Below, one piece after another: positions 10,874 to 44,679 of a stretch of 64,000 nt of DNA (position 1 is the first letter of the stretch; each line of letters begins with the position of its first letter). Below the pieces are notes generated by a model. It saw only the letters and a program-made list of their open reading frames with translations, had not been told where the DNA came from and did not search any database. The DNA comes from Planctomycetota bacterium (GTDB lineage Bacteria; Planctomycetota; UBA1135; JAKEFM01). A program made the translations under genes and the position numbers. The stretch covers positions 23,044 through 87,043 of the forward strand of contig DASRRH010000009.1 of the NCBI GenBank assembly GCA_035695825.1, read 5' to 3'.

Positions 10874-13600
10874 ATGAAGTTCCGCCCCGTCGCGTGGGTC
10901 CTCGTCCTCGCGGAGTCCGCCCCCGCGCAGAAGTGGTTCGACGCCCCGCTCGTCCTGACGCACCAGGGGGAGGTGCGCGCCCAGGGAGACGTCGACGGGG
11001 ACGGAGACGTCGACCTCCTCTCCTTCTACGGCGCGACCTCGTCGGGGATCTGGCTCTCCTTCCAAGTGTTGACGAACGACGGGACCGGAGCCTTCACCGC
11101 CGGCCCGTCGATTCCGCTCCCCTCGGGCCAGCTCAACGCCACGCACCGCCCCTTGCTCGGGGACGTGACCGGGGACGGGCTCCTCGACCTCGTCCTGACC
11201 GTCCTGATCAATCCGACGACCGGCGCCGGGATTCGCATGTTCCCCGGACTCCCGGGCGGAGCCTTCGGGGCGTCGGTGTTCGCCTCGCTCCCCGGCAACC
11301 CGCTCGGCCTCGTCCTCCGCGACCAGAACGGGAACGGCGCGCTCGACGTCGGCGTCGTCTACTTCGGCGTGACCGGCGATCCCGCCGTGCGGTGGCTCTT
11401 CTGGAACGGGACGGGATTCACGCCGAGCGCGTCGGTCGTCCTGCCGGGCTTCACCGCGCTCTCGATCGCGTCGGCGGACGTGACCGCGGACGGCGTGCCG
11501 GACCTCCTCGTCGGGGAGTGGTTCGGGCCCAACGTCCAGGTGGTCCCGACCGTCGCCGGCAATCCGGCGCTCGGCCCCCTCGTCCCCATCCCCGGCCCCG
11601 TGGGGGAGGGCCGGAACCTCCTGGTCGGCGACCTCGAGGGGGACGGCGACGAGGACGTCCTCGTCTGGACCGAGGACTACATGACCGGGCTGCGGTTCGT
11701 CGTCGTCACGAACGGCGGGGGCGGCGTCTTCACGGTCGGATCGCCCCAGTTCTTCTCCTCCTCGTCGTTCCCGTTCCTCTTCTCGCACGCGGCCGACCTC
11801 GGCGACTGGGACGGCGATGGGGACCTCGACGTCTTCCGCCAGGCCAAGGTGCTCACCTTCTTCTCGAACGACGGCTCGAACGCCTTCGCGTTCGCGGCGG
11901 CGGTCCCGACGGACTTCGATGCGGCCGGGGCAGGCCCCGCCGACTTCGACGGCGACGGCAACCTCGACTTCTGCGCCGCGCAGGTCCTGAAGTTCGGGAA
12001 CGGGACGTTCGAGTCGGTCCTCTTCCCTCCCGTCGGGAACTACGGCCCGACGGCGGCGAAGGCGATCGACTGGGAGGGGGACGGCGACGTCGACTTCCTC
12101 GACACGTTCGGCCAGGCGCTCGTCAACGACGGGACGGGCTCCTTCGCCCTCACCCCGTCCCTCTGGCCCTCCCCGCCCGCGAGCAACGTCTTCCGAGACC
12201 CGGTCGCCCTCGCGGACTTCGACGGGGACGGGAGGGCCGACTACCTGGCGGCCCGGTACCTCATCATCCTCGTTCCCCCGATGACGCCGCCGGTCTTCCA
12301 GGACATGCGCCTCCTCCGGGACGACGGCGTCGGGGGCTACGTCGACGCGGGCCCCGCCGCGCCGGCCGGGACGCTGATCGCTCCCGAGGTCGGCGGGCAG
12401 ATGCGCCGGCCCACGGTCGACATCGACGGCGACGGGGACCTCGATCTCCTCGACGGGGGAGGTTACCGGGCGAACAACGGGACGGGGTTCTTCGGCGCCC
12501 TCGTCCCCCTCTATCCCGGCAACGCGGTCGACGCCGCGGACGTCGACGGGGACGGGGACGTGGACGTGCTGACGAGCGTGAGCGTCGGCTCCTCGCCGAT
12601 CTCGCTCGTCGCGCAGATCCACCAGGGGGGTCTCACCTTCACCGGCCAGACCCTCTTCACCTCGAGCACGCAGGACGCGCGGGCCCAGTTCCTCGACCTC
12701 GACGGGGACGGCGACCCCGACGTCGCCCTCGGCTCCGGCCCGAGCGGGAACCAGCTCCGCCTCTTCGAGAACGTGGCGGGCGTCTTCCTCCCCCCGGTCA
12801 GCCTTTTCGCGTCCCCCTACACCACGCAGGTCGTCGGCACGGGCGACGTCGACGGCGACGGGTTGCTCGACGTCGTCGCGGGCCCGTTCGACGTCAACCC
12901 GAACGGGTCGTGGATGAACGCGTATCGCCGGGTGGGACCGGGGCTCGTCTACGAGCCCCGGCGCGAGTACCTGAGCCGCCTCGTGCGCGCGTTCCCGGAC
13001 CTCGGCGGGACCGCGGCGCTCCTCGTCCTCGGGACGGGAGAGGCGGCGCTTCCGAACACGCCTGTTCCCGGGATGACCGTCTACGTCGCGCCGATTCAGG
13101 TCGTCCTCCCGTTCGTGGCGCAGGGAGCCCCGGGCGTCGCCGGCGATGGGCGGATCGATCTCCCCGTCCCGATTCCCGTGCTCGCCACGCTCGCGAACAC
13201 CAGCGTCTTCCTCCAGGTCTTCCTCATCGATCCCGCTGCGCCCTCCTTCCTGGCGGCGACGAACGGCCTGGAGCTTCACGTCGGCGCGTGGGCGGCCCCC
13301 CTCCCCGGTTTCCCGCGGAGCTCGTCTCTCGGCACGACCCCGGATGGCGCGACCGGCTCGACAGGGCGAACGAGGAGCGACCGTGAGGGTGCCCGATCCG
13401 GGCGAGGGGGCCGCGACCCCGGCTCTCCTCCTCGACTCCGCCGTCGAAATGTGTTCGGCCGACCGCGGCTTCCTTTAGATCCGCGCCGGCGACGGACTCC
13501 GCGGATCGCTCGCCCGCGGAGCGGAGAGCCAAGCGGCCACCGCGATGCCCGGGTCGCGTCCTCGCGGCGACCGACCGCCCCCTGTGTCGTCAGGCCATGA
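10874..13600 (+). CDS. Secreted FG-GAP/VCBS repeat protein with shared C-terminal module and an atypical 3' extension
   Basis: Signal-like MKFRPVAWVLVLAESAPAQ. Many DVDGDGDxDL repeats. The shared module ends at ...LELHVGA (about 13288), but the frame stays open to 13600 through an R/P/G-rich tail. Confidence 0.7.
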   Translation: MKFRPVAWVLVLAESAPAQKWFDAPLVLTHQGEVRAQGDVDGDGDVDLLSFYGATSSGIWLSFQVLTNDGTGAFTAGPSIPLPSGQLNATHRPLLGDVTGDGLLDLVLTVLINPTTGAGIRMFPGLPGGAFGASVFASLPGNPLGLVLRDQNGNGALDVGVVYFGVTGDPAVRWLFWNGTGFTPSASVVLPGFTALSIASADVTADGVPDLLVGEWFGPNVQVVPTVAGNPALGPLVPIPGPVGEGRNLLVGDLEGDGDEDVLVWTEDYMTGLRFVVVTNGGGGVFTVGSPQFFSSSSFPFLFSHAADLGDWDGDGDLDVFRQAKVLTFFSNDGSNAFAFAAAVPTDFDAAGAGPADFDGDGNLDFCAAQVLKFGNGTFESVLFPPVGNYGPTAAKAIDWEGDGDVDFLDTFGQALVNDGTGSFALTPSLWPSPPASNVFRDPVALADFDGDGRADYLAARYLIILVPPMTPPVFQDMRLLRDDGVGGYVDAGPAAPAGTLIAPEVGGQMRRPTVDIDGDGDLDLLDGGGYRANNGTGFFGALVPLYPGNAVDAADVDGDGDVDVLTSVSVGSSPISLVAQIHQGGLTFTGQTLFTSSTQDARAQFLDLDGDGDPDVALGSGPSGNQLRLFENVAGVFLPPVSLFASPYTTQVVGTGDVDGDGLLDVVAGPFDVNPNGSWMNAYRRVGPGLVYEPRREYLSRLVRAFPDLGGTAALLVLGTGEAALPNTPVPGMTVYVAPIQVVLPFVAQGAPGVAGDGRIDLPVPIPVLATLANTSVFLQVFLIDPAAPSFLAATNGLELHVGAWAAPLPGFPRSSSLGTTPDGATGSTGRTRSDREGARSGRGGRDPGSPPRLRRRNVFGRPRLPLDPRRRRTPRIARPRSGEPSGHRDARVASSRRPTAPCVVRP

Positions 13601-14634: not shown

Positions 14635-15231
14635 TCACTTGGTGATGGTCATCCAGTCGGGGTTCGTGAGGAGGATGGTGGTGCCCCCGGCGAGGATCGC
14701 CGCCTGACCATAGACGGTCAGGCCGACGAGCGCCCGGTCATTGGGGATCGGGACGGTGACCTCGAACTTCCCGGTCGCATCGATCCGGCCCGCGCCGAAG
14801 GGGAGGATGCCCTGGGGGCCGATGAACAGGGTTCCGTCGCCCGCGATCGGCACGAACGTCGACTGGAGGGCCCCTCCGAGGAACGCCGGCTCCCCCGGGT
14901 TCCCGAACGCCGCGACGTGGGCGTCGCCTCCGATCGAACGCTTGTCTCCGATCGCGAAGCTCTGGCGGACGCTCGCGATCGTCCGCACGTCGACCCACGG
15001 CCTCATCGAGGATCCGTTCCAGTAGCCGTCGATCTCGACCTGCTCGCCCACGAACCGACCCAGGTCGATCGTCGGACTCCGGAGCAGCGTGCTCGTGCCG
15101 TCCACGAAGAACTCCTGCCTCGGGGGCGGAACCTGGTCGACCTTGCCGCGCAGGCTGACCCTCTGACCGGAGGCCACCTGCGCGGTGCCCACCAGCGCGA
15201 GGCAACACGAAACGATCGAGAGGACATTCAT
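14635..15231 (-). CDS. Secreted protein ending in the shared C-terminal module
   Basis: ATG at 15231 gives the signal peptide MNVLSIVSCCLALVGTAQVASG. The C-terminus reads ...TGKFEVTVPIPNDRALVGLTVYGQAAIL...WMTITK. Confidence 0.65.
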   Translation of the reverse strand: MNVLSIVSCCLALVGTAQVASGQRVSLRGKVDQVPPPRQEFFVDGTSTLLRSPTIDLGRFVGEQVEIDGYWNGSSMRPWVDVRTIASVRQSFAIGDKRSIGGDAHVAAFGNPGEPAFLGGALQSTFVPIAGDGTLFIGPQGILPFGAGRIDATGKFEVTVPIPNDRALVGLTVYGQAAILAGGTTILLTNPDWMTITK

Positions 15232-26155: not shown

Positions 26156-26919
26156 GGCGACGGCCGCCCCATCTCCCGGGCGAGCACCTCGAGGTCGAAC
26201 GCCTCCTTGCGGACGCGGAGGTCGTAGTAGAGGAGGATCGTCACGATCGAGGCGAAGGGGGCGAAGAAGACGTTCCCGGCCTGCGCGAGCGCCGTGAGGA
26301 CCGCCGGGCCGGCGTGGGCCCACCTCACGAAGCCGCTGACGATCATTCCCCAGAGGAGGGAGAGGACGCCCGCAAGCCCGACGAGGAGGAGCACCTTGTT
26401 CCGGAAGCCGCGGGCGAGCGCCCACGATCGCCGGCACGACTCGATCACGGACTTGCGCTCGAGCATCACCGCCGCGTTCACGAAGGAGAGGCCCGCCATC
26501 GCCACGACGCCGGGAACGATGAAGAGGAGGAGCCCGACCATGACGGCGATCGTCACGAGGATCGCAGCGCCGATCATCGGGAGCAGGCGGTCGAACGCTT
26601 TCCCGAAGGCCGTCCGGACCCCGGTCGGACGACCGAGGACCAGGTCGGATACGGCCTGGATGAGGGCTCCCTGGAGGACGGCGCCGCCCAGGATCCCGAG
26701 GATCGTGGTGACGAGGTATCCGGCCATCGTCCTCGAGAGGAAGTTCTCCGGATTCTCGGGGCTCGGCGCCTTGGCCTCCGCCGTCGCGATGCCGAGGAGC
26801 GCGAGGGGGACGAGCAGGACGAGGGCGATCGGGAGGAGGCGTCCCAGGTTCGCGAGGTAGATGCGCAACCCCCGGTCCAGGATCTCCCCGACCCCCATCG
26901 GCCGGAGTTCGTACGGCAC
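26152..26919 (-). CDS. Polytopic membrane protein, first gene of the MoxR/DUF58 operon
   Basis: 255 aa with about 6 hydrophobic helices (LLPIALVLLVPLALLGI, AILVTIAVMVGLLLFIVPGVV, VLLLVGLAGVLSLLWGMIV). Coupled to the downstream gene. Confidence 0.7.
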   Translation of the reverse strand: MPYELRPMGVGEILDRGLRIYLANLGRLLPIALVLLVPLALLGIATAEAKAPSPENPENFLSRTMAGYLVTTILGILGGAVLQGALIQAVSDLVLGRPTGVRTAFGKAFDRLLPMIGAAILVTIAVMVGLLLFIVPGVVAMAGLSFVNAAVMLERKSVIESCRRSWALARGFRNKVLLLVGLAGVLSLLWGMIVSGFVRWAHAGPAVLTALAQAGNVFFAPFASIVTILLYYDLRVRKEAFDLEVLAREMGRPSP

Positions 26920-27243
26920 GGCGGGTCCCGACCTCCTTTCTCGTCCGGCGCGGGCCCGATGCTATCCCGCCGCCCCGGGGCGCGCACCGGACTCGGCCGC
27001 CGGACGGGGTCGCCGCGGCGACTGCGACCCGAAAGCCCTTCGGATTGTTCGGAGTTCTGCGTGGGTAGCCCGGGGTAGGGAGCTTTCCCTTCCCCATCCC
27101 CCCGAATCCCGCCCTCTCGGGCGTCCCGCCCTGCTTCCAGGGACACGTCGTCGATCCGGGGCCCGCGGTTCTCCCCGGGGCGAGCAAGGGCGGGATCGGT
27201 CGGCCGGATCCTCCGAGGCACCCGCGGCCCGGAGGCGATCGCC

Positions 27244-28548
27244 TCACAGGAACACGAGCTCGACGGTGTTCGATCCCTCCTCGAAGAAGGGTGTCGTCCC
27301 GGGCCCGAACCGGAGGTAGAGGGCCCCGGCGTAGACCCGCGACCCCGGCGTGATGCCGGGCGGGATCGGGATCGGCGGGGTCTCGGCCCGCATCATGGAG
27401 TCGAGGGTCGGATTGCCCGCCGTCGTGCAGCTGCCCGACCACAGATGGCACTGCGTCCCCGCGAAGATCGTCCATCCCAGGGTGAGGAATGTCGTCGGGG
27501 TCGGGTAGAGGGAGAGGGCGCCGGGAGAGTTGGGGAGGATCAGGCTTCCAGGAAGCAGCGCGCCTCCGGGACAGACGGGGACCCCTGCGGAGTCGTCGCC
27601 GAGGAGGATCACGGCGAGGCGGTTCGCGCCGAGGAAAGCCGCCTCGCCGGCGGTCCAGTCGAGCGACCAGAAGACGAGGTTCTCGAAGGGGAGCAGGTTT
27701 CGCGCCCCGGGGCCCGGGGCGAGGGTGGGGAAGAAGCTGGGCCCCGCCTTGAACGCCTGGAGGACGGGCTCGTAGAAGCCTAGCGACAGCATCAACTCCT
27801 CGCTCGGGGGGCGCACGCCGACCGACGGGGGGATCGTCGAGGCGTCGACCCAGCCCGAGTAGCTGTTGGGCAGTCCGTTCGACCCGATGTTCAGCGCGAA
27901 GTTCTCCTCGGCGATCGAGAGGACGTTCTGGAAGTAGACGGAGGCCGGCGGCGGCGGGAGGGACTCCCCTGGCGTGTAGCGGACCACGAAAGCGAGGTCC
28001 TGCTGCGTCGGAAGGACGGGGAGGCCCGGGTCGGGACCACAGCCGGGCGGGCCCCAGGGAGAAGCGGGAGACACGAGGACGTTGAGGGCGAACAGACCGT
28101 ACGAGATGTTGATCGTTCCCGGGTCCGCGGCGAAGAGCACGGGGCCCGCGAAGTCCGGCACGCGCTGCCCGGCGGCGTTCCGCGTCACCCGTCGAACCTC
28201 GAATGCGGGCAGGTCGAACGGCGCGACGCCCCCCGTCGGGTTGTTGATGGGCTGGACGAGCGTCGCCAGGGTCCACGCGGCGAGCCGGACGGAGCTGGAG
28301 GCGCGCGTCATCGCGTGCTCGCACCCGAGGATCTTCCACTCGGCGTCCCCCGCGATGTTGCCGCTCAGGGCGTTCGGGCCGGCGACGGCCGACACGCTCT
28401 GGGCGTTGAAGTCGCTCACCCGATTCAGATGGTCGCAGAGGACCGTGGCGCTGCAGGCCGGCGGGGGACAGAACTGGGCGGAGGCTCCCGCGCACAGGAG
28501 GGAAGCGGTGGCGAGACCGGGAAGGAGGGGATGGGAAGGTAGGCTCAA
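27244..28548 (-). CDS. Secreted hypothetical protein ending in the shared C-terminal module
   Basis: TTG at 28548 with GAGGA 4-5 nt upstream gives the signal MSLPSHPLLPGLATASLLCAGASAQ. Ends ...PPIPIPPGITPGSRVYAGALYL...VELVFL. Confidence 0.6.
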   Translation of the reverse strand: MSLPSHPLLPGLATASLLCAGASAQFCPPPACSATVLCDHLNRVSDFNAQSVSAVAGPNALSGNIAGDAEWKILGCEHAMTRASSSVRLAAWTLATLVQPINNPTGGVAPFDLPAFEVRRVTRNAAGQRVPDFAGPVLFAADPGTINISYGLFALNVLVSPASPWGPPGCGPDPGLPVLPTQQDLAFVVRYTPGESLPPPPASVYFQNVLSIAEENFALNIGSNGLPNSYSGWVDASTIPPSVGVRPPSEELMLSLGFYEPVLQAFKAGPSFFPTLAPGPGARNLLPFENLVFWSLDWTAGEAAFLGANRLAVILLGDDSAGVPVCPGGALLPGSLILPNSPGALSLYPTPTTFLTLGWTIFAGTQCHLWSGSCTTAGNPTLDSMMRAETPPIPIPPGITPGSRVYAGALYLRFGPGTTPFFEEGSNTVELVFL

Positions 28549-28616
28549 GGGATCCTCACGATTGGATCTGGGGAGATCGGCTTCGCATCCTGCGCTCGGG
28601 CCGGGCGCGACCGCGT

Positions 28617-30362
28617 TCAGAGGACGACGACATCGAGGGCGCGCGACATCGCCGCGGGCACGAGCGAGGGGCCAGGATCCGCGACGTACCATTGGACGAA
28701 GAGATGGAGCCCGTGGAGGGAGGGTGCCGCGGGGATGGGGAATGGGGAGAGGGCGGATCCGCCCGTCGGCCCCGCGCCGCCCGTCGTCGCGGGGAAGCTG
28801 ACCTCCGGCGCGACCCAGAGGAGGCATTCCGGCAGACCGAAGAAGAAGAGCCCGAAGGGAAGGGGGATGCCCATCCAGTTGTCCTCCGAGAACCCCGCGA
28901 GCAGGAACGCCGCGGTCCCGCCGGGGGCGTTCGAGAGGCCGATCCCGAAACCCGCGTTCCCGAGAACCGGGGAGCCGCCCGCGGGGGCAAGGACCGGGAC
29001 GGCCCCGCTCGGACCCGCGCAGCCGGTCCCGAACGGGCGGAAGGGGGAGAACTCGTCCCAGCCGATGTCCACGGCCACCGTGCCGTTCCCGTCGCCGTCG
29101 ACGAGCCGGGGGTCCCCGTCGGGATCGGCGGCGGGGAGGAGCGGGGCGGTGCTGAGGCCGGCGTCGATGCACGGGGAATCGAGACCCAGGTGGTAGTCCC
29201 CCTGGACCGGGTCGGCGAACTGGGGATCCGCGGAGATGTTCCCAAAGAGCCCGACCCAACCCGGGATCGTCCCGCCGAACGGAGGGATGCCCCAGGACAC
29301 GACGTCGTTGTTCTGGACGATGGGGGGGGTGGCGTCGCCGAAATCGGTGCCGAACATCGCGTACTCGCCCGCGGGCGCGACGACGATGTTGTTCTGGATC
29401 TTCGCCTGCGCGTCGTAGCCGTCCGCGTAGATCCCCGATCCGAGGACCGCGGTGTTGCCGACCATCGTGTTGTTGAGCACGGTCGGGCCGATCGTCCCGA
29501 AGGGGACGATCCAGTAGATCGCCCCTCCGTGCGAGATCGCGCTGTTCCCCACGAAGAGATTCTGGACGATCCGCGGACTCGAAGAGGCGCCCGTCGCGAT
29601 CGCTCCTCCCTGTCCGGACGTGTTCCCGATGAACCGGTTGTTCCGGATCGTGATGACCCCCACGTTGGTGAGGTTGATCCCCCCTCCGCTGTCGAACGTG
29701 TTCCCGGCGATCAAGTTGTCGAGGATCTGGGTGTTCGGGGAATTGAAGACGGCGATCCCGCCACCGCCTCCTCCCCCCGAGCACCCGAAGTTGTTGTTGT
29801 CGGTGATGACGTTCCCCACCACGACGGGCGCGGAGTCGGTGATGTAGATGCCGCCGCCTGAGCAACACGCGCGGTTCGCCGTGATGACGTTGTTCGAGAT
29901 CGTCGGCGTGGCGCCGACGGCGATGAAGAGGCCGCCCCCGTAGCAGATCGTCCCTGCCATTCCGGAGGCGTTGCCGTTTCGAATCGTGAACCCGCTCAGC
30001 ACGGCGCTCGAGGGTTCCCCGGATTCCATCAGGACGACCGTCCCCAAGCCCATCCCGTCGACGATCGTCGCCGCCGGGCCCTCCTCGCTCGCCACGACGA
30101 TCCCCTTGCCGAGGAAGTCGAGGTGCTCGGAGTAGGTGCCCGGCGAGACGAGCACCGTGTCCCCGTTCACCGACGCGTTGATGGCCGACTGGATCGTCGG
30201 GTACTCGGAGGGGACGAGGCGAACGGTCCGCGCGTCGGCCGTCCCGGCGAGGAGGACCCATCCCGCCGCCGCCGCGACGAATCCGAGCGCGCGACGGCGC
30301 CTGCTCGCCCGGGATCCCCCGTTCCGACCACGCGACTCGCGGGACGCGACGCTCCGCCTCAT
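28617..30362 (-). CDS. Secreted right-handed parallel beta-helix (PbH1/pectate-lyase-fold) protein with shared C-terminal module
   Basis: ATG at 30362. Arg-rich signal SRRRRALGFVAAAAGWVLLAGTADA. Repeats NNVITANRA / GNVITDNNN / DNLIAGNTF / NNRFIGNTS / QNLFVGNSA. The C-terminus reads ...PFPIPAAPSLHGLHLFVQWYVADPGPSLVPAAMSRALDVVVL. Confidence 0.8.
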   Translation of the reverse strand: MRRSVASRESRGRNGGSRASRRRRALGFVAAAAGWVLLAGTADARTVRLVPSEYPTIQSAINASVNGDTVLVSPGTYSEHLDFLGKGIVVASEEGPAATIVDGMGLGTVVLMESGEPSSAVLSGFTIRNGNASGMAGTICYGGGLFIAVGATPTISNNVITANRACCSGGGIYITDSAPVVVGNVITDNNNFGCSGGGGGGGIAVFNSPNTQILDNLIAGNTFDSGGGINLTNVGVITIRNNRFIGNTSGQGGAIATGASSSPRIVQNLFVGNSAISHGGAIYWIVPFGTIGPTVLNNTMVGNTAVLGSGIYADGYDAQAKIQNNIVVAPAGEYAMFGTDFGDATPPIVQNNDVVSWGIPPFGGTIPGWVGLFGNISADPQFADPVQGDYHLGLDSPCIDAGLSTAPLLPAADPDGDPRLVDGDGNGTVAVDIGWDEFSPFRPFGTGCAGPSGAVPVLAPAGGSPVLGNAGFGIGLSNAPGGTAAFLLAGFSEDNWMGIPLPFGLFFFGLPECLLWVAPEVSFPATTGGAGPTGGSALSPFPIPAAPSLHGLHLFVQWYVADPGPSLVPAAMSRALDVVVL

Positions 30363-30612
30363 GGGACGCTCCCTCGCTCCTGGGTGGGAAGGACCCCAGG
30401 AATGTCCCGGCCATCCGGGCGTTTCTGCGGGAGGCGATCGTAGGAGGGGTCGGGGACCTGTCAAGGCGGATGGGAAGGACGCGGACCCCGACCTCCTTCC
30501 CGGAGTTCGAAGTCCCTGCTGGAGCCTCCCCGCCACGCCACCGTCGCGCGCGAGCGCGCCCGCCGGAGAGCCTCTAGAATGCCGGCGCCTCACCTGGCCG
30601 GAGGATCGAGCG

Positions 30613-33429
30613 ATGCGCGCCGTCCGTTCCGCCGCGGTTCTCGCCCTCGCTTCCCTTGCTCCCTTCGCTCCCGGACAGACCGGCTCCTACGCCAACTTCG
30701 AGAGCCCGACCGTCCACCCGATCCGGCTCTCGGCGGACGGGACGCGCCTCTACGCCGCGAACACGCCGGACAACCGCCTCTCGGTCTGGAGCCTCGCCGA
30801 CCCCTCGAGCCCGGTCCTGATCAAGGAAATCCCGGTCGGGCTCGAGCCGGTCTCCGTCGCGCCCCGGACGGACGACGAGGTCTGGGTGGTGAACCACCTC
30901 GGCGACTCGGTGAGCGTCGTGTCCGTCGCCCTGGGGGTCGTCCTCGACACGATCTACGTCAAGGACGAGCCCGCCGACGTCGTTTTCGCGGGGTCCCCGC
31001 AGCGGGCCTTCGTCAGCGTCTCCCAGTCGAACGAGGTCCGCGTCTTCGACGTCGCGACCCGCGACCTCCTCCAGACGATCCCGATCTTCGGGGAGGATCC
31101 CCGCGCGCTCGCCGCGAGCGCGGACGGCTCGAAGGTCTGGGCGGTCGTCACCGAGTCGGGGAACAAGACGACGGTCCTTCCCGCTTCCCAGTCCCCGGCG
31201 CCGCCGCCGCCGACGAACCCGGCCCTCCCCGCCGCGCCGCAGACGGCGCTCATCGTCTCGAGCACCGACCCGCTGTACGCGGCGCTGATCCCCTACACGC
31301 TCGCCGATCAAGACGTCGTCGAGATCGACGCGAACACGGGCGCGATCTTGTCGAGCTACACCGGCGTCGGGACGATCAATTTCGGAATCGCCCCCCGCCC
31401 CGGGACGAGCGAGCTGTGGGTCGCGAACACGGAGGCGCGCAATCTCGTGCGCTTCGTCCCGAACCTGCGGGGCCACGCGGTCGACGACCGCGTCACCCGG
31501 ATCGTCCCGGGGAGCCCTCCGACGACGACTCCGTTCGACCTCAACCCGGGCGTCGACTACGCGGTCCTCCCCAACCCCGCCGCCCTCTCGACCGCCCTCG
31601 CGCAGCCCGTCGACCTCGTCTGGGACCCCTCCGGCACGACCCTCTACGTCGCCGCCTTCGGCACGGACCGCATCGGGGTCGTGAGCCCCTCGGGGGGCGT
31701 GACGGACCGGATCGAGATCGGGCCGGCGCCGGGAGCTTCGGCCGACCCGCGGAACAAGAAGGGCCCCCGCGGCCTCGCTCACCATCCGTCGCAGCCCCGC
31801 CTCTACGTCCTCGACCGGCTCTCGCAGACCCTCCAGACGATCGACACCGTTTCGAGGACGGTCCTCGGAGAGAAGCCGATCGCGGCGGTGAACCCGGAGC
31901 CTCCGGCCGTCCGCGAAGGGCGGGGCTTCCTCTACGACGCGAAGCTCTCGGGGAGCGGCACGATGTCCTGCGCCTCCTGCCACGTCGACTCGAACTTCGA
32001 CCGTCTCGCGTGGGATCTCGGGGACCCCGGGGGAAGCCTCGACACGGTCGCGAACCCCGTCCTCCCCTCGCCGGTCTTCCTCCCCTCCCTGACGATGCAC
32101 CCGATGAAGGGGCCGATGACGACGCAGGCGCTGAAGGGGCTCTCAGGCGTCGACCCGTTCCACTGGAGGGGGGACCGGGTCGATCTCGCGGCGTTCAACG
32201 GCGCCTTCCCGGACATCCTGGGCGGCGCGCCGCTCCCGAGCGCCGACCTCCTCGAGCTGGTCGCCTTCCTCGGCTCGGTCCGGTTCCCGCCCAATCCGAA
32301 CCGGACCCTCGACGACGACCCGCCCGGCGACTTCCTGGGCGGCAATCCCGTGGCCGGGCAGACCTTCTTCTCGACCCAGGTCTTCAACGGGACCAACCTC
32401 CGCTGCATCGACTGTCACGCCCTCCCGACGGGCACGGGCCGGTCGATCGCCCCCGCGGGAGTTCTCCAGCAGAGCCAGCCGCTCAAGGCCCCGCACCTGC
32501 GGAACCTCTACGAGAAGACGGGCTTCTCCCGCGCTCCCGGGCCGCAGCGCGCGGGGTTCGGCTTCGCCCACGACGGGACGAGCGACACCCTGCTCGGGTT
32601 CCTCCAGCAGCCCTTCTTCGGGGCGCTTTCGGGGACCACGCTGATCGCGACGACGAACCGGCAGGACCTCCAGGCCCTCGTGCTGACGCTCGGGACCGGA
32701 ACGGCGCCTGCCGTCGGGTACTCGCGCACGGTCACCGGGTCGAACGCATTCTCCTCCGCCGTCTCCTCGGACTTCGCCCTCCTCTCCGGCCAGGCGGCGC
32801 TCGGGAAGTGCGACCTCGTGGCCAAGGGGGCGCTGAACGGGCAGGCGCGGGGATTCCGTTACAGCCCGGCGAGCGCCATGTTCCTGCCCGACCGGTCCGG
32901 CGAGTCTCCCTCGACGTGGAACGGCCTCCGCATCCCCATCGCGATGGGGGCGGGGACCCTCACCCTCATCGGCGTCCCTCCCGGCTCGGGGCAGCGGATC
33001 GGGATCGACCGCGACGAGGACGGGATCCTCGACGGGGACGAGGGACTCCTCTCCTACGGCGCCTCCACTCCGGGCTGCGCCGGCCCCCTCTCCCTCGGGG
33101 GGAACTCGGAGCCGCGGGTCGGGAACTCCCTCTTCGCCCTCGCCTGCGCGGGCGGGCCGTCGGGCGGGAGCGGGCTCCTCCTCCTTGGGTTCGGCCCGAC
33201 CTCCATCCCCGTCCTCGGCGTGACGCTCCTCGTCGACCTCGGAGGAGTGGCGCCTGTCGCCCTGCCGATGCCCGCGGACGGAGCGGGCCTCGGCCTCGTC
33301 TCCCTCCCCATCCCCGACGTCGCCTCGCTCGCCGGGGCGAACCTCTACGCGCAGGCCTTCTTCGGGGATCCCTGCGGGCCGCAGGGGATCGGCGCTTCGC
33401 AGGGGCTCGGGATCACGGTCCAGTCGTAG
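30613..33429 (+). CDS. Secreted beta-propeller + two-CxxCH (dihaem cytochrome c peroxidase-like) protein with shared C-terminal module
   Basis: RBS GGAGGA before the ATG at 30613. Signal MRAVRSAAVLALASLAPFAPGQ. Propeller-like repeats (RLYAANTPDNRLSVWSL, EVWVVNHLGDSVSVV). Haem-c motifs CASCH and CIDCH. The C-terminus reads ...LVSLPIPDVASLAGANLYAQAFFGDP...GITVQS. Confidence 0.8.
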   Translation: MRAVRSAAVLALASLAPFAPGQTGSYANFESPTVHPIRLSADGTRLYAANTPDNRLSVWSLADPSSPVLIKEIPVGLEPVSVAPRTDDEVWVVNHLGDSVSVVSVALGVVLDTIYVKDEPADVVFAGSPQRAFVSVSQSNEVRVFDVATRDLLQTIPIFGEDPRALAASADGSKVWAVVTESGNKTTVLPASQSPAPPPPTNPALPAAPQTALIVSSTDPLYAALIPYTLADQDVVEIDANTGAILSSYTGVGTINFGIAPRPGTSELWVANTEARNLVRFVPNLRGHAVDDRVTRIVPGSPPTTTPFDLNPGVDYAVLPNPAALSTALAQPVDLVWDPSGTTLYVAAFGTDRIGVVSPSGGVTDRIEIGPAPGASADPRNKKGPRGLAHHPSQPRLYVLDRLSQTLQTIDTVSRTVLGEKPIAAVNPEPPAVREGRGFLYDAKLSGSGTMSCASCHVDSNFDRLAWDLGDPGGSLDTVANPVLPSPVFLPSLTMHPMKGPMTTQALKGLSGVDPFHWRGDRVDLAAFNGAFPDILGGAPLPSADLLELVAFLGSVRFPPNPNRTLDDDPPGDFLGGNPVAGQTFFSTQVFNGTNLRCIDCHALPTGTGRSIAPAGVLQQSQPLKAPHLRNLYEKTGFSRAPGPQRAGFGFAHDGTSDTLLGFLQQPFFGALSGTTLIATTNRQDLQALVLTLGTGTAPAVGYSRTVTGSNAFSSAVSSDFALLSGQAALGKCDLVAKGALNGQARGFRYSPASAMFLPDRSGESPSTWNGLRIPIAMGAGTLTLIGVPPGSGQRIGIDRDEDGILDGDEGLLSYGASTPGCAGPLSLGGNSEPRVGNSLFALACAGGPSGGSGLLLLGFGPTSIPVLGVTLLVDLGGVAPVALPMPADGAGLGLVSLPIPDVASLAGANLYAQAFFGDPCGPQGIGASQGLGITVQS

Positions 33430-33441
33430 CCCGCGCGCGGG

Positions 33442-35085
33442 TCATAGGACCGTCACGTCGAGGCCCGCCGACATCGCGCCCGGCAGGAGCGCGGGACCCG
33501 GGTCGGTCACGTACCACTGGAAGAACACGCGAGCCCCGTGGAGGAGGGGGTCGTTCGGAATCGGCAGCGGAAGGGAGACGGTCCCGACCCCGGGCCCGCT
33601 CCCGGAGACCGGGCTCACGGCGAGGAGGAACGGGGGGACGAGCAGGGAGCAGTCGGGGAGCCCGAAGAAGAAGAGGTTGACCGGGGCCGGGAGCGGAGCG
33701 AGCCCGGACAGGAGGAAGGCCGCGCTCCCTCCGAGCGCATTCGAGAGCGTGAGGGCGAACCCCCCGTTCCCCACGGCCGGAGTCGGACCCGAGACGCCCG
33801 CGTTGGGGAGGAAGCCGCCGCTCCCGGGACAGGCCGAGCCGAAGGAAGCGACGGGGGAGTATTCGTCCCAGCCCACGTCCACGACCGCCGAACCGTCCGC
33901 GTTCCCGTCGTAGATCCGAGGATCCCCGTCCGCGTCGGTCGGGGAGAGGAAAGGGGCCCCGGCGAATCCCGCGTCGATGCAGGGAGAGGAGGGGAGGAGG
34001 TGGAAGTCCCCGCCGAGGGGGTTCGCGAACAGCGGGTCGGCGCTGAAGTTCCCCCACGTCCCGGTCGGGTCCGGCATCCCCCCCGCGTAGGGCGCCCCAC
34101 CCGGATTCCACACGTCGTTGTTCCGGAAGGCCGCGAGGAGGACGTTGAGGGTGGGGGAGAAGACGGCGCTCGGGGCCCCCCTCCCCGCGAAGACGTTGTT
34201 CTCGAGGGTGCAGGGGGTCGAGAGCCCGTTCGGGACGTAGACCGCCGTCCCGATGGGCGCGTCGTTCCCGACCACCGTGTTGTTGACGACCGCCATCGGG
34301 GCGCCGGAAAAGACCTCGAGGTGGAGTCCGCCCCCCGCGATCGGAGAGGAATTCCCGGTGACGAGGTTCTGGACGAGCCGGACTCGGCCTGCGGCGAAGA
34401 TGCCCGCGCCCGGGCTCGCGCACAATCCGAACGTCGCGTTCCCCTGGACGAGGTTCCCCGTGACGACGACGAGGCCCGGGGAGGAGATCGAGAGGCCGGC
34501 CCCGGCGCTGTGGATGTTGCCCGTGATCACGTTCCCCGTGATCTCGGTCCCCGCGCAGTCGCCGACGACGGCGATCGCGCCGCCCGAGGCCCCCCAGCAG
34601 AAGATCGGCTGGAAGTTGTCCTGGAGCACGTTCCCGACGATCCGGGGGGAAGCGGAGTGGACCTCGATCCCTGCCCCGTCGAGGCAGTCGGCGTTGTCAC
34701 GGACGAGGTTTCCGACGATCGTCGGAGACGAGCGGCCGTCGACGAGGATGCCCCCGGCGGCGCCGTATCGGACCGTGAACCCCGAGAGCACGGCGGTGTC
34801 CGGCTCCCCGTTCGCGAACGTGACGACCGGGATCGGAAGACTCGCCCCGTCGAGGATCGTCAGTTCCGGGCCGGCGCTGCTCACCACGGCGATCGCCCGC
34901 CCGAGGAAGTCGACGTTCTCGACGTAGATCCCCGGGGCGACGAGCACCGTGTCCCCGTCGATCGCCGCGAGGATCGCGGCCTGGACCGTGGGGAAGTCGG
35001 CCGGCACGCGGAGGGTGTTCTGGGCCCGCGCGAGGCCGACGGTCGCCGCGAGGAGGAGAGGGAGGACGAGGCGGACTATGCACAT
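33442..35085 (-). CDS. Secreted right-handed parallel beta-helix protein (paralog of 28617..30362) with shared C-terminal module
   Basis: ATG at 35085 preceded by GGAGG. Signal MCIVRLVLPLLLAATVGLARA. PbH1 repeats. The C-terminus reads ...SLPLPIPNDPLLHGARVFFQWYVTDPGPALLPGAMSAGLDVTVL. Confidence 0.8.
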   Translation of the reverse strand: MCIVRLVLPLLLAATVGLARAQNTLRVPADFPTVQAAILAAIDGDTVLVAPGIYVENVDFLGRAIAVVSSAGPELTILDGASLPIPVVTFANGEPDTAVLSGFTVRYGAAGGILVDGRSSPTIVGNLVRDNADCLDGAGIEVHSASPRIVGNVLQDNFQPIFCWGASGGAIAVVGDCAGTEITGNVITGNIHSAGAGLSISSPGLVVVTGNLVQGNATFGLCASPGAGIFAAGRVRLVQNLVTGNSSPIAGGGLHLEVFSGAPMAVVNNTVVGNDAPIGTAVYVPNGLSTPCTLENNVFAGRGAPSAVFSPTLNVLLAAFRNNDVWNPGGAPYAGGMPDPTGTWGNFSADPLFANPLGGDFHLLPSSPCIDAGFAGAPFLSPTDADGDPRIYDGNADGSAVVDVGWDEYSPVASFGSACPGSGGFLPNAGVSGPTPAVGNGGFALTLSNALGGSAAFLLSGLAPLPAPVNLFFFGLPDCSLLVPPFLLAVSPVSGSGPGVGTVSLPLPIPNDPLLHGARVFFQWYVTDPGPALLPGAMSAGLDVTVL

Positions 35086-35334
35086 GGCGGACCTCCGCAT
35101 CCGAGGATCGGCGAGCGCCTCCCCGGCCGACGACCCCCTGCCGTTCCGATCGGGGCGTCGTCGAGGAAACGTCACCGCCCGGTTCCCGCGGCTTCGGACT
35201 GCGGCGCATCCTACCGGCCGCCCTGGGAGCGGGGAAGGAGGGCTTGCGCCGGGCGGGCGCTCCCTATCCGTCTCCGAGCGCGACCGTTATCTTACGGCCG
35301 AGCGTCCGACCTCCCTTTCGGAGAGGAGGCGTCG

Positions 35335-36750
35335 ATGAATGCGCGCGGAGCCTTGAGAGCCGCCTTCTTCGTGGCGGTGGGGGCCGTTCCCGTCCGAGGC
35401 CAGGACAACCACGCCCCCGTCTTCACCGTCGCCGAGTTCGTCCAGGTCGCCTCGAGCCCCTCCCTCAACTCGATCTCGAGCGCCCTGACGGTCGAGGCGT
35501 GGGTGCGTGCCACGCTGGCCCAGTCCAACCTGACGGCCCTCCGGAGGAACCTGACGAATTTCGTGAACGGCGGAGAGGTGATCATGCTCCGGATCGATTC
35601 GATGAACCTCCTCACGAACCAGATGAAGCCGCGCTTCTACCTCGGCGTGGGGCCGGACTCCTTCTTCGTCGAGGGGACCGTGCCCTTGTCGCTCGGCTTC
35701 TGGCACCACTGGGCCGCGACCTTCGACGGGACGTTCATGAGGATGTTCTGGGACGGCGCGCTCGTGGCGATCGCGCCGCATCCCGGGGTCGTCGCCTCGA
35801 CCGCGGCGCCCCTGTTCCTCGGAACGGGCGTGGGGAACCCGTTCGACTCCTGGCGGGGCAACGTCGACGAGGTGAGGCTCTGGAACGTCGCCCGCTCGCA
35901 GGCGGAGATCCAGTCCTCGTCCTATGCCGTCTTGACCGGGTCCGAGCCGGGACTGGTCGCCTACTGGCGGTTCGAGGAGGGGGGAGGGCAGTTCGCGGCG
36001 GACACGACGCCCAACGGCAACGTCGGGGTCTTCGGCGCGCTCCCGGTCCCCGATCCGTCCGACCCGGCCTGGGCCGTCGTCCCGTTCATCGAGGCCTTCT
36101 CCGTCGCTCCGTCCATCGGCCCCTTCTACGCGGCGAGCGCCGTCACGATCGCGGGGTCGGGCTTCGTCGCGGGAGGTCCGCCGACCGTCACCGTCGGGGG
36201 AGTGTCCGCGAGCGCGGTGACCGTGGTCGGTCCCGGCACCCTGCAGGCGGTCTTCCCCGCTGGCCCGGCGGGCCCCGCGGACGTCGTCGTCTCGAACGGC
36301 CTCGGGTCCGACGTCCTCGCGGGAGGATGGCATTGGGCCGACCACCTCTACGGTGCAACGACCTCGATCTCGGCGGCGGCGGGCGGCGCCGCCCCGTTGA
36401 CCCTCTTCGGGGAGCCGGGGAACGCCGGGAAGGTCTACCTCGTCGGCTCCTCCGTCTCGGGGACCTTTCCGGGAATTCCTCTCCCGGGGACGTCCCTCGT
36501 CGTCCCGCTCAATCACGACCCGTGGATGGACCTCGCCCTCGGGACCGTGAACAGCCCCCTCTTCGCGAACTTCTTCGGCACGCTCGACGGGCAGGGTCAG
36601 GCGACCGCGTCGTTCAACGCAGCGCCCGGCCCGCTCCCGACCGCCGCCATCGGGCTCGAGGCGAGCTTCGCCTACGTCGTGATCGACCCGCCGCCGGTGC
36701 CGGCGTTCGCGCTCGCCTCGAACGCGGTCACGGTCACGGTGCTCCCGTGA
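35335..36750 (+). CDS. Secreted LamG (concanavalin-A-like lectin) + IPT/TIG protein with shared C-terminal module
   Basis: RBS GAGAGGAGG before the ATG at 35335. LTVEAWVR...WHHWAATFDG...WRGNVDEVRLWNVARSQAEIQ (Laminin_G_3 pattern). IPT-like ...VTIAGSGFVAGGPPTVTVGG. Ends ...NAVTVTVLP. Confidence 0.8.
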   Translation: MNARGALRAAFFVAVGAVPVRGQDNHAPVFTVAEFVQVASSPSLNSISSALTVEAWVRATLAQSNLTALRRNLTNFVNGGEVIMLRIDSMNLLTNQMKPRFYLGVGPDSFFVEGTVPLSLGFWHHWAATFDGTFMRMFWDGALVAIAPHPGVVASTAAPLFLGTGVGNPFDSWRGNVDEVRLWNVARSQAEIQSSSYAVLTGSEPGLVAYWRFEEGGGQFAADTTPNGNVGVFGALPVPDPSDPAWAVVPFIEAFSVAPSIGPFYAASAVTIAGSGFVAGGPPTVTVGGVSASAVTVVGPGTLQAVFPAGPAGPADVVVSNGLGSDVLAGGWHWADHLYGATTSISAAAGGAAPLTLFGEPGNAGKVYLVGSSVSGTFPGIPLPGTSLVVPLNHDPWMDLALGTVNSPLFANFFGTLDGQGQATASFNAAPGPLPTAAIGLEASFAYVVIDPPPVPAFALASNAVTVTVLP

Positions 36751-38471
36751 GCCGCTCCCTGGGACGCGCACTCGCCGGCCTCGGTTGGATCCTCCTCGCG
36801 TCGGCCGGGACGGCGCGCGGTCAGGGCTATCCCCTGCAGTCGGCGTCGGGGACGGCCGCCTACGATGCCTTCGGGTTCTCGGTGGCCGGCCCCGGCGACG
36901 TGGACCAGGACGGCGTCCCCGACTTCCTCGTCGGGATCCCGGGAGCCGACCCGGCGGGGAACGCCGACGCGGGGGAGGCGAGGGTTATCTCGGTGGCGAG
37001 CGGAGCGGCGATCCTGATCCTCCCGGGCGGAGCCGCGGGGGACTACTTTGGCTACTCGGTCGCGGGGGCCGGGGACCTGGATCTCGACGGCGTTCCCGAC
37101 CTCGTCGTCGGCGCTTCCCAGAACGGGTCCGGAGGACCGGGCCTCGCGAAGGTCTTCTCCGGGGCGAGCGGCGCGGTCCTCCTCACCCGCACGGGGACGC
37201 TCGCGGGAGACCGCTTCGGCGCCTCGGTCGCAGGCGCCGGGGACGTGAACGCGGACGGGGTCGCCGACATCCTCGTCGGCGCGCCGCGGGTGTGGCCGGG
37301 GGCGCTGCCGGGCTACGCGAAGGTCTACTCCGGATCGACCGGCGCGACGCTGCTCCTGTTGAATGGCCCCGGCCCGGGCGACCTCCATGGCTTCGCCGTC
37401 GCCGGAGCGGGGGACGTCAACGGGGACGGGCGGGCCGACCTCCTGATCGGTGCCCCGAACGGGCCCGGCAGCGGGGGCATCTCCGGCGAGGCGCGGCTCC
37501 TCTCGGGACTCGACGGGACACTGATCCGCCTGTTTGCCGACCTCGGGACCTACGGGGACCTCGGCCTCTCGGTCGGGAACGCGGGCCTCGTGAACGGAGA
37601 CGCCGTGCCGGACCAGATTCTCGGGAGCATGTCGGGCGCGGGGGTCTATTCGGGGGTCGGGGGGTACACGATCCTCGCCGAGTACGGGGGGACGGGGGAC
37701 TGGTTCGGCCGCTCCGTCGCGGGAGCGGGAGGGGACGTGGACGGCGACGGGTTCGGCGACCTCCTCGTCGGGGCGCCCGCCTCCCCGATCTACTCCATGC
37801 TGCCGGGGTACGCCCGGGTCGTCCCCGGCGGGCCGGCAGGGACCGCCGTCAAGCTCGCCGGGTCGGCGCCGGGCGATGAGTTCGGGTGGTCGGCGGCCGT
37901 GGTGGGGGACGTGAACGACGACGGCGTTCCGGACTTCGTCGTGGGCGCCCCCGGTGCAGACTCCCCCGGCGCTCCCGGGGCCGGAAGCGCGACCGTGACC
38001 TCCGCCGTCGGGATCCCGCCAGGCTCGGCCTTGCTCGGGTCGGGCTGTCCGGGCCCAGGGGGCCTCGTTCCCGCGATCACGACGATCGGCGGCTACCCGA
38101 CCACGGGTTTCCCGGGGACGGGACTGGCCAACCCGTACTTCACGATCCTCCTCTCGCACGCGGAGCCGGGGAGACCTGCCTTCCTCTTCGTCGGCGTTTC
38201 GGCCGCCTCGTGGATGGGGACGCCGCTTCCCTTCAACCTGGGGCCCTTCGGCATGCCGGCCTGCTTCCTGAACGTCCAGCCGGGGTTCATCGTGCCGAGG
38301 ACGACCGTCGGATTGGGACCCGGGGGAGGGAAGGCGCGAGTCCCCATGCCCATCCCCGCGATCCCCTCCCTCGCCGGGAGCCACGTTTACTGCCAGTGGT
38401 ATGTCGTCGATCCGGGGCCCGGCATCGTCCCCGGGGCGATGTCTCCCGGATGGGACGGGGTGATCCTGTAG
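36747..38471 (+). CDS. Secreted FG-GAP (integrin-alpha-like) repeat protein with shared C-terminal module
   Basis: The GTG at 36747 overlaps the upstream stop (GTGA). Repeats FGFSVAGPGDVDQDGVPDFLVG and FGYSVAGAGDLDLDGVPDLVVG. The C-terminus reads ...PMPIPAIPSLAGSHVYCQWYVVDPGPGIVPGAMSPGWDGVIL. Confidence 0.8.
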   Translation: MSRSLGRALAGLGWILLASAGTARGQGYPLQSASGTAAYDAFGFSVAGPGDVDQDGVPDFLVGIPGADPAGNADAGEARVISVASGAAILILPGGAAGDYFGYSVAGAGDLDLDGVPDLVVGASQNGSGGPGLAKVFSGASGAVLLTRTGTLAGDRFGASVAGAGDVNADGVADILVGAPRVWPGALPGYAKVYSGSTGATLLLLNGPGPGDLHGFAVAGAGDVNGDGRADLLIGAPNGPGSGGISGEARLLSGLDGTLIRLFADLGTYGDLGLSVGNAGLVNGDAVPDQILGSMSGAGVYSGVGGYTILAEYGGTGDWFGRSVAGAGGDVDGDGFGDLLVGAPASPIYSMLPGYARVVPGGPAGTAVKLAGSAPGDEFGWSAAVVGDVNDDGVPDFVVGAPGADSPGAPGAGSATVTSAVGIPPGSALLGSGCPGPGGLVPAITTIGGYPTTGFPGTGLANPYFTILLSHAEPGRPAFLFVGVSAASWMGTPLPFNLGPFGMPACFLNVQPGFIVPRTTVGLGPGGGKARVPMPIPAIPSLAGSHVYCQWYVVDPGPGIVPGAMSPGWDGVIL

Positions 38472-42185: not shown

Positions 42186-43415
42186 TCAGGGGCGCGCGAT
42201 CGAGACCTCGAGCCCGTTCGTGTTCTGCCAAATGTTCGTGTTTCCGTCGAACACGAACCCCTGCAGGAAGATCGAGGCGGGGATCGGCAGGTTCGCCGGC
42301 AGCGGCGTCGGCACGAAGAATGTCCCGCTCGCCGGCACGGGGCCCTGGACGAGGAGGGCCGGCGCCCCGATATAGACCAGCATGGTGAGGATCGGGAAGG
42401 GCGGGCACGAGGTGCCCAGGGAAAGGAAGATGAACGCGAAGGAGCCCGGGGGCGCGCCGGAGATCGAGAGCGAGAAGTTCGGGTTCGGCGAGACGCTCTG
42501 GCCGGAGCCGAGGAGGAACGGATACCCCGGAGGAGAGGCGGTCCCGAACCCGATCGCGTGCGCCGAGTAGGCGAGGCCCGAGACGGGAGGCGAGGTCGCG
42601 GGGAAGCAGGCGGACGTCGCGTAGAACGTCGACGCCGGCGGCCCGGCGATCGGCGTGATCCGCTCGATCATCGCGCCGTCGGTGACGTACATCGCCCCCG
42701 GCCCGGCGAAGAACGAGTGGTCCATCGCGAGCCCTTGGAGGCCGCCCGTCGCGCAGGTGAGCGGCGGCGCCTGGATCCCGTACCCCGTCGGGAGGCCGGT
42801 GGTGGGGGAGACGCTGACGATCAATCCCGACACCGTGCACGCGTAGAGCGCGGGCACGACCGGATCCCACTCGATGTCGGTGTAGGGGGACCCGACCGCG
42901 GGCAGGGCGAAGGGCGCGACCATCAAGGTGAGCAACCCGGGGCAGTTCGCGGGCCCCGGCGGCACGAGCCCGGCCGCCGTCGTCGCGTTGCAGACCCAAA
43001 GGACTCCGCCCGGGTCGTCGTAGCCGAGTCCCGTGATGGTGCCGAAGCCCGGGAGGACGGAGGCGAGCGTGAAGGAGCGCTGCGGGGAGCCGTTCGGAGT
43101 GAAGAGGGTGATGTTCGTTCCGTCCGTCACGTAGATCAGGTTCTGGGAGCGCGCGACCGCGATGTCGCCGCCGAGGTTGCCGGGAGGGAGCGCGAAGCCC
43201 GCCACCGTCGGGCAAGGGAAGGGGGGGTTCGTCAGGAACCCACCGAGATAGGGCCCGTTCGGCCAGAGACACAAGCCGGCGGGGGGTCCAGTCTGTTCGG
43301 AGACGATCGCGAAGGGGCTCGCGGGGCCGTTGCCGTTGATCGTGTAGAGCGTCTGGGTGTGGGCCGTGGCGGTCAGGGTCGTCGCGATCGCGAGCAGCAT
43401 CGAGGTCGGTCGCAT
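42186..43415 (-). CDS. Secreted hypothetical protein ending in the shared C-terminal module
   Basis: Signal MRPTSMLLAIATTLTATAHTQ. Balanced, Gly/Pro/Thr-rich extracellular-type composition. Ends ...FFVPTPLPANLPIPASIFLQGFVFD...GLEVSIARP. Confidence 0.7.
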   Translation of the reverse strand: MRPTSMLLAIATTLTATAHTQTLYTINGNGPASPFAIVSEQTGPPAGLCLWPNGPYLGGFLTNPPFPCPTVAGFALPPGNLGGDIAVARSQNLIYVTDGTNITLFTPNGSPQRSFTLASVLPGFGTITGLGYDDPGGVLWVCNATTAAGLVPPGPANCPGLLTLMVAPFALPAVGSPYTDIEWDPVVPALYACTVSGLIVSVSPTTGLPTGYGIQAPPLTCATGGLQGLAMDHSFFAGPGAMYVTDGAMIERITPIAGPPASTFYATSACFPATSPPVSGLAYSAHAIGFGTASPPGYPFLLGSGQSVSPNPNFSLSISGAPPGSFAFIFLSLGTSCPPFPILTMLVYIGAPALLVQGPVPASGTFFVPTPLPANLPIPASIFLQGFVFDGNTNIWQNTNGLEVSIARP

Positions 43416-44181: not shown

Positions 44182-44679
44182 TCAGAGGACGGTGACGACG
44201 ATCGCCTGCGTGAAGGAGAGGGGGATGAAAGGGGAGCCGGAGAGGACGATCGCCTGGATCCCGAAGGACGCGCCAGGGGGGGCGTTGCTCGGGAAGGTGA
44301 ATGGAATCGTCGTCGTCCCGCTCGGGCAGGAGAGGATCGGGCTCACCTGGTCGAGCGTCCCCGCGAAGGCGACGATGATCGGCAGGTCGAGGACGAGGGA
44401 GTGGGAGATCCCCGGGATCGAGAGGCAGGACGTCGCGCTCACGGACACGCCGACGACGTAGGCGGCGTTCGGCTCTCCCCGGAGGAAGAGCGCGACCGCC
44501 TCTCCCGGCGAGACCGTCGTCGTGTCCGGAGCGCACTGGAAGCCCCAGCAGAACGGGCCCGCCGTGTTTCCGCCCGCGCCCGTCCAGTGGAGAGCGACGG
44601 CGTCCGCGGGGAACTGAGCGAAGCCGGAACCGGTGCACGTCGCGACGGCGACGGCGAGAGGAAGGAGCTGGATTCGCAT
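44182..44679 (-). CDS. Small secreted protein consisting essentially of the shared module alone
   Basis: Signal MRIQLLPLAVAVATCTGSGFAQ. 165 aa. ...TTIPFTFPSNAPPGASFGIQAIVLSG...QAIVVTVL. Confidence 0.65.
   Translation of the reverse strand: MRIQLLPLAVAVATCTGSGFAQFPADAVALHWTGAGGNTAGPFCWGFQCAPDTTTVSPGEAVALFLRGEPNAAYVVGVSVSATSCLSIPGISHSLVLDLPIIVAFAGTLDQVSPILSCPSGTTTIPFTFPSNAPPGASFGIQAIVLSGSPFIPLSFTQAIVVTVL

Follow-up and report, generated by a model that had tools for sequence, protein, structure and literature searches.

A C-Terminal Beta-Sandwich Module Shared by Diverse Exported Proteins of Planctomycetota

Module-Bearing Genes of the Locus

The DNA analyzed here (the window) is a stretch of 64,000 nucleotides from contig DASRRH010000009.1 (positions 23,044 to 87,043 of the forward strand) of the Planctomycetota bacterium assembly GCA_035695825.1, and has a GC content of about 72% throughout. 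It holds six adjacent open reading frames (ORFs), g1 to g6, which an initial annotation, made from the sequence alone, described as secreted proteins with unrelated N-terminal folds that all terminate in one unassigned C-terminal module; more divergent copies were proposed to close four other genes. The six ORFs are present as described, and a signal-peptide-like N-terminus is found in each of them, as in all carriers of the module in the window. The module itself, which is about 125–140 residues long, represents a large, so far unannotated, lineage-restricted domain family of Planctomycetota.

Four genes of the cluster carry a firm copy. On the minus strand, g2 (28617..30362) encodes a signal peptide with a twin-arginine-like n-region, a right-handed beta-helix (NosD and para_beta_helix matches) and a canonical module, which occupies the last 135 amino acids (28620-29024) and is recognized with an E-value of 8e-59 by a hidden Markov model (HMM) built from the tails of the window. 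The product of g4 (33442..35085, minus strand) is likewise a beta-helix/NosD protein with a canonical module (33445-33837), and its residues 360-405, directly upstream of the module, match choice-of-anchor Q weakly, with a score below the threshold. These two proteins are 43% identical over their full length and 51% identical within the module, and are whole-gene paralogs. On the plus strand, g3 (30613..33429) encodes a beta-propeller followed by a CCP_MauG di-haem domain (Pfam, NCBIfam) and ends in a module at about 33043-33426, and g6 (36747..38471) encodes an FG-GAP propeller (Pfam) with a canonical module at 38040-38468.

The two remaining genes of the cluster are less straightforward. The g5 product (35335..36750, plus strand) contains Laminin_G_3 and IPT/TIG domains (Pfam), and its last ~135 amino acids (about 36340-36747) form a distinct tail subfamily. 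The protein encoded by g1 (27244..28548, minus strand) is exported and belongs to no Pfam or NCBIfam family; only inspection by eye suggests that its tail is similar to the module. Pfam confirms the folds that had been named for g2 to g6, but the N-terminal regions are not all unrelated, as g2 and g4 are paralogous, and g1 has no family.

Outside of the cluster, gene 10874 (10874..13600, plus strand) encodes an FG-GAP/VCBS protein (FG-GAP_3, E = 7e-49) with a divergent, cysteine-less module at about 12896-13297. Gene 14635 (14635..15231, minus strand) encodes a protein of 198 amino acids, consisting of a signal peptide, a region of ~70 amino acids and a divergent module at about 14638-14928; its database entry (P0001) comes from a Planctomycetota metagenome-assembled genome (MAG), where it bears the label 'hypothetical protein', and is encoded on a 603-kb contig of JGI metagenome 3300036860. 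Gene 42186 (42186..43415, minus strand) encodes an exported protein of 409 amino acids without a Pfam family, which has a divergent module at about 42198-42527. The exported 165-amino-acid product of gene 44182 (44182..44679, minus strand) has a tail that is weakly, co-terminally similar to the module. Lastly, an orphan fragment on the plus strand (27072..27197) encodes 42 residues of the conserved C-terminal block, 'FPFPIPPNPALSGVPPCFQGHVVDPGPAVLPGA'.

Several features of individual carriers deserve mention. The signal sequence of g2 (30240-30362, minus strand) has a long basic n-region with the Tat-motif-like sequence 'SRRRRALGF', and those of the other carriers are Sec-type in appearance. 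The GTG start codon of g6 shares 4 bases with the stop codon of g5 (36747-36750), an arrangement hinting that these two tail-bearing genes are co-transcribed and translationally coupled. The propeller of g3 is of the YVTN type and is fused to a di-haem CCP/MauG-like domain; sub-threshold NCBIfam matches of this protein include the beta, gamma, and beta-gamma fusion subunits of hydrazine synthase, as well as MbnH-family di-haem enzymes, and g3 may represent a non-anammox relative of the hydrazine-synthase architecture.

Support for the Individual Copies

The window HMM, which was made from four window tails, was searched against 534 six-frame ORFs of the window, and two deeper profiles of the module (A4 and A5) were applied in addition. 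The modules of g2, g4, and g6 are recovered at E-values of about 1e-57 with the window HMM, and that of g3 at 6e-42 (2e-38 with A5). The divergent copies follow at 5e-11 with the window HMM and 5e-24 with A5 (gene 10874), at 4e-5 and 4e-21 with the same two profiles (gene 14635), and at 1.4e-4 with A4 and 2e-7 with A5 (gene 42186). Each of the jackhmmer runs seeded with one of the last three tails converges on the entire module family. Shuffled and reversed ORF controls gave zero matches, and the similarity survives alignment statistics for these seven copies. The empty controls, together with E-values down to 1e-47 against 1.8 billion proteins, rule out that the matches simply reflect the composition of a genome with 72% GC.

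The orphan fragment at 27072-27197 is matched by the window HMM with an E-value of 5e-8. Three-frame translation reveals a stop codon directly upstream and neither a coding frame nor an intact gene, and the fragment is for that reason regarded as a decayed copy. Its place in the gap between the genes of a DUF4129 operon and g1 hints that genes with the module turn over and decay at this locus.

The tail of g5 is probably a remote relative of the module, judging from profile comparisons: hhalign with a three-sequence profile gives a probability of 53% (E = 1.3e-4) over 100 co-terminal columns, and with the single sequence 91% over the last 54 columns. Tails of the g5 type ('...SGT.PGI....PLN.DP...') also close a BNR/Asp-box-like protein in another MAG (L008, 3750-5849, plus strand), where the gene adjoins a canonical module gene, and a discoidin-like protein on a metagenome contig (L017, 1164-2573, plus strand). 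At least two related tail subfamilies thus coexist. The tail of gene 44182 is a weak candidate for membership: hmmsearch places it at the expected position with an E-value of 3.9 among the 534 ORFs, the hhalign probability is 2.7%, and a jackhmmer search with it recovered nothing. As for g1, its tail has no match with the window HMM, A4, or A5, its jackhmmer search came back empty, and its hhalign probability is 0.5%. A scan of metagenome contigs detected no relatives of g1, and single-sequence AlphaFold modeling of its tail reaches a predicted local distance difference test (pLDDT) score of only 36.

The window therefore contains seven full copies, one decayed fragment, one probable remote copy (g5), and two proposed copies that are unsupported (gene 44182 and g1), where ten copies had been counted initially. 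Within the cluster, the claim of a module shared by all six genes is borne out for g2, g3, g4, and g6, probably holds for g5 as a remote relative, and has no support for g1; among the four other genes it stands for three. The further claim that the module ends 0–3 residues before the stop codon is correct for those four cluster genes and for gene 42186. In gene 10874 no stop codon follows the module, and the frame extends for ~105 Arg-rich codons (13289-13600, plus strand). The GC contents at the second and third codon positions of this extension are 0.80 and 0.71, versus 0.48 and 0.96 in the body of the gene, which is a non-coding-like pattern; the extension may reflect a lost stop codon, a sequencing error, or an addition that is tolerated. 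A database relative, P0130, has a similar junk-like tail after its module.

Size, Position, and Cargo of the Family

When 1.84 billion protein-cluster representatives were searched exhaustively with an HMM, 5,851 of them matched the module at E ≤ 1e-3, and 526 still did so at E ≤ 1e-10. Two of the window proteins are themselves representatives, namely g6 (P0006, E = 1.3e-47) and g4 (P0007, E = 7.5e-38). Word-indexed homolog searches were sparse (5, 0, and 29 matches) and missed the window's own proteins; they supplied names and the alignment used for AlphaFold. Each match that bears a name is a hypothetical or VCBS protein of a Planctomycetota MAG.

Among the best 150 matches of the exhaustive search, the module ends no more than 7 residues from the C-terminus in 147, and no protein has two copies (0/150). 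Its cargo is varied. The 91 full-length members include 62 FG-GAP proteins, which are about 550–590 amino acids long and have one common architecture, about 5 NosD/beta-helix proteins, as well as cupredoxin and NIDO proteins, with the remainder unassigned. To these the window adds the propeller/di-haem and LamG/TIG combinations, and altogether at least six unrelated cargo folds carry the module. A second subtype, 'YGASTPGCAGPL...QFAW.D.CAPGG.SASNAL.I.VQP', corresponds to the tail of g3 and is found on SBBP-like repeat cargo (P0002-P0005 and P0159-P0180). No linker separates the cargo from the module. As in g4, a weak choice-of-anchor Q match lies directly upstream of the module in 2 of the 91 relatives. 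The module of g6 is about 50% identical to those of g2 and g4, although the cargo is unrelated.

Conserved Residues and Predicted Fold

According to searches of Pfam-A 2025 and NCBIfam 20.0, no family matches the tails of the 10 window proteins or of the 91 relatives, and isolated modules have no match in either collection even at E ≤ 10. Sequence searches of the PDB with two profiles gave a best E-value of 0.15, which is spurious, and full-text literature searches turned up no description of the module. The initial description of the module as unassigned is thereby upheld, and the scan for an already defined domain or sorting signal detected none in Pfam or NCBIfam.

Two cysteines are co-present in 89 of the 91 modules, and the one sequence without the first cysteine is also without the second. 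This co-presence points to a disulfide, and hence to an oxidizing, extracytoplasmic location; it is consistent with a canonical subtype that is stabilized by one disulfide. The other conserved positions are mostly loop glycines and prolines, along with the 'PIP..P.L.G....QW.V.DPGP' block. The tail ends in a beta-strand ('LDV.VL'), and has no hydrophobic helix.

For the g2 module, AlphaFold2 confidently predicts a 10-stranded, all-beta sandwich from a 35-sequence alignment (pLDDT, 94.8; predicted template modeling (pTM) score, 0.87). The best Foldseek TM-scores (0.45–0.52) are with generic immunoglobulin (Ig)-like domains, including TRAP lumenal, LaX325, NPC2, LILR/LAIR, and SoxYZ. This likeness is one of fold, and gives no evidence of homology.

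Comparison with Known C-Terminal Domains

The closest analogy is with the C-terminal domain (CTD) of substrates of the type IX secretion system (T9SS) of Bacteroidota (Por_Secre_tail, PF18962/TIGR04183; type B, TIGR04131). Both are folded beta-sandwiches that form the very C-terminus of proteins exported by Sec, occur once per protein on diverse cargo, and have many carriers per genome. On the other hand, the module has 125–140 amino acids and 10 strands, in contrast to about 70–100 amino acids and 7 strands in the T9SS CTD; it matches none of PF18962, TIGR04183, and TIGR04131, no T9SS CTD is among the top 50 Foldseek matches, and there are rare N-terminal and cargo-less examples of the module. 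Of the features of a T9SS CTD that were tested, the module shares position and general fold class only.

The short tripartite tags (PEP-CTERM, LPXTG, MYXO-CTERM, GlyGly-CTERM, and PGF-CTERM) resemble the module in being C-terminal, in occurring in multiple copies on diverse exported cargo, and in their overlapping choice-of-anchor cargo families. They differ from it in that the module is a globular domain of ~130 amino acids that ends in a beta-strand and lacks a signature motif, a hydrophobic helix, and a basic tail. The NCBIfam models of such tags do not match the module tails. The initial annotation was therefore right to set the module apart from PEP-CTERM, LPXTG, MYXO-CTERM, GlyGly-CTERM, and the T9SS CTD.

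Other autonomous domains are appended to varied secreted proteins in a similar manner. SLH and PPC (PF04151) domains either govern whether the protein is retained or are cut off once it has been secreted, but share no sequence similarity with the module. The 'thigh' domain of integrin alpha is an Ig-like sandwich straight after a 7-bladed FG-GAP propeller, which is also the commonest architecture of the module; however, homology between the two is not detectable, and the module occurs in addition on beta-helix, SBBP, cupredoxin, and di-haem cargo.

Gene Neighborhoods

Species-representative genomes were scanned with a narrow pattern (A6, QWYV[VTI]DPG), which detected 14 loci in at least 3 MAGs, the number of MAGs being a lower bound; 8 of the loci are in one Planctomycetota MAG. 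These 14 loci hold 21 modules, each at the end of an ORF, and several are in tandem gene pairs or quartets.

In the window, genes 42186 and 44182 are directly adjoined by a gene for a protein of 1,579 amino acids (44937-49673, plus strand), which contains a Peptidase_C11 (clostripain, clan CD) domain and an alpha/beta-hydrolase/LCAT-like domain. Clan CD also takes in the family of the T9SS sortase PorU (C25), and on that basis one may speculate that the C11 protein processes the tails. Two giant proteins with CarboxypepD_reg repeats (15556-19071, plus strand, with 9 matched stretches; and 38745-41552, minus strand) flank the module-gene clusters, and the former also adjoins a P0001 homolog on an independent Logan contig. 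Directly upstream of the module cluster is a MoxR-type operon (19868-26961) encoding RDD, DUF58/VWA, MoxR AAA_3 ATPase, DUF4129, and UPF0259-like membrane proteins. Asp_protease_2 (retropepsin-like) domains are present in two neighboring proteins (149-1783, minus strand; 2848-4899, plus strand), one of which has TPR repeats.

Possible Roles of the Module

The reading that we favor, at a rough probability of 0.45, is that the module is a common C-terminal handle for envelope or surface targeting, or for retention there, through one shared partner. Carriers in this uncultured high-GC Planctomycetota lineage would be exported across the inner membrane by Sec or Tat, and the module would fold autonomously into a lineage-specific Ig-like beta-sandwich. 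The folded tail would then bind a single common partner in the envelope, perhaps a receptor in the outer membrane or on the surface, or else a polymer of the envelope. In this way cargo as varied as propellers, beta-helices, lectin-like domains, and redox domains would be routed to the cell surface or retained there. Where the carriers end up, that they have a partner in common, and what becomes of the tail (retention or cleavage) are matters that we infer. The reading builds on established features of the family, that is, its homology and size, the near-invariant terminal position, the single copy per protein, the diversity of cargo, the signal peptides, the cysteine pair, the fold, and the missing annotation. 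In favor of the handle are the terminal and single module, the varied exported cargo, the multi-copy and tandem genes, the ~50% identity across carriers with unrelated cargo, and the weak choice-of-anchor Q match just ahead of the module in g4 and in 2 of the 91 relatives.

Several observations count against it. The initial annotation took the C-terminal position to be invariant on diverse cargo, and this is very nearly so, but P0127 carries the module straight after its signal peptide and continues with 600 residues of other domains, the module is internal in P0121, and P0125 consists of a signal peptide and the module, with nothing else. Across the 14 loci, a Pfam survey of 64 neighboring ORFs detected no recurrent partner gene and only scattered housekeeping functions. 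Neither a sortase, nor an exosortase, nor a T9SS gene was found in the window, as had been noted initially, and PorU, PorV, Sov/SprA, and PorK-N were found neither in the window nor in the 14 related loci. A Foldseek search of the PDB with the g2 module model, one of the checks that had been proposed, returned no match at E ≤ 1e-3, leaving only the generic Ig-like resemblance (TM ≤ 0.52); since the fold appears generic, the structure points to no mechanism. The implication originally drawn from the module, that of a dedicated sorting machinery, does not follow from these data, given that no partner gene recurs, that the fold resembles generic Ig-like ones, and that P0127 and P0125 exist. A domain that binds or retains autonomously would account for these two proteins no less well than a sorting signal would.

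A related explanation has the module bind a ligand, whether in the manner of a lectin or carbohydrate-binding module (CBM) or as an adhesive domain. Its carriers would then be tethered to other cells, or to an external substrate that they have in common, and not to their own envelope. The Ig-like beta-sandwich is common among CBMs and adhesin domains, the module has a conserved aromatic/polar block, 'QW(Y)V.DPGP', and the cargo consists mostly of adhesion or binding folds (FG-GAP, LamG, TIG, NIDO, and discoidin); the stand-alone module of P0125 and the N-terminal one of P0127 agree with such a role as well. Yet, unlike most CBM or Ig adhesin modules, this module is never in tandem and almost never internal. 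It has no sequence likeness or close structural likeness to a known CBM or lectin, and recognizable glycoside hydrolase or lyase cargo is present in few carriers. Binding to an external ligand is an unlikely explanation, although it fares best among the alternatives to the favored handle.

Also unlikely is a true secretion or sorting signal in the manner of the T9SS CTD, in which a dedicated outer-membrane translocon would recognize the folded tail and a sortase-like peptidase would cut it off, perhaps linking the cargo to a glycolipid of the surface. Here the module would be the recognition domain of an undescribed Planctomycetota secretion or attachment pathway, an independently evolved analog of the T9SS CTD with its own translocon and processing enzyme, a proposal that we consider doubtful. 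Hallmarks of the T9SS CTD are seen in the 147 of 150 terminal positions, the single copy, the diverse cargo, and the many copies per genome; all carriers have a Sec- or Tat-type signal peptide, weak choice-of-anchor Q matches lie just upstream of some modules, and the large clan CD peptidase beside two tail-bearing genes is suggestive only. Against this, no T9SS CTD model matches, the top 50 Foldseek matches include none, and no translocon or sortase candidate recurs near the module genes of the 14 loci. An N-terminal module (P0127) and a cargo-less one (P0125) are awkward for a cleaved tag, the ~105-codon extension after the module appears to be tolerated by gene 10874, and T9SS is not known in Planctomycetota.

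Still less probable is a passive structural or folding domain (a stalk, an oligomerization unit, or an intramolecular chaperone, modeled on the Ig-like 'thigh' after integrin propellers or on the PPC pre-peptidase tail), inherited mainly with one expanded FG-GAP paralog family and occasionally shuffled, because the FG-GAP propellers of one architecture that make up 62 of the 91 full-length relatives, the paralogy of g2 and g4, and the junction of cargo and module without a linker, which speak for it, are set against at least six unrelated cargo folds, no Pfam PPC match, and an identity of ~50% between unrelated carriers that argues for a shared external constraint. Finally, type I secretion substrates are ruled out by the N-terminal signal peptides.

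The transport and attachment of many surface and extracellular proteins at the outer membrane of Planctomycetota is poorly understood, and the module offers a concrete handle on this question. Although thousands of clusters contain it, nearly always as the last domain of diverse cargo that is exported, it matches nothing in Pfam, NCBIfam, or the PDB, and can be defined now as a new family. A dedicated sorting machinery for the module is plausible. Should the module prove to sort proteins, a new route of secretion or anchoring would come to light; should it prove to bind a ligand, that ligand would be common to a whole surface proteome in an uncultured lineage of soil and sediment.

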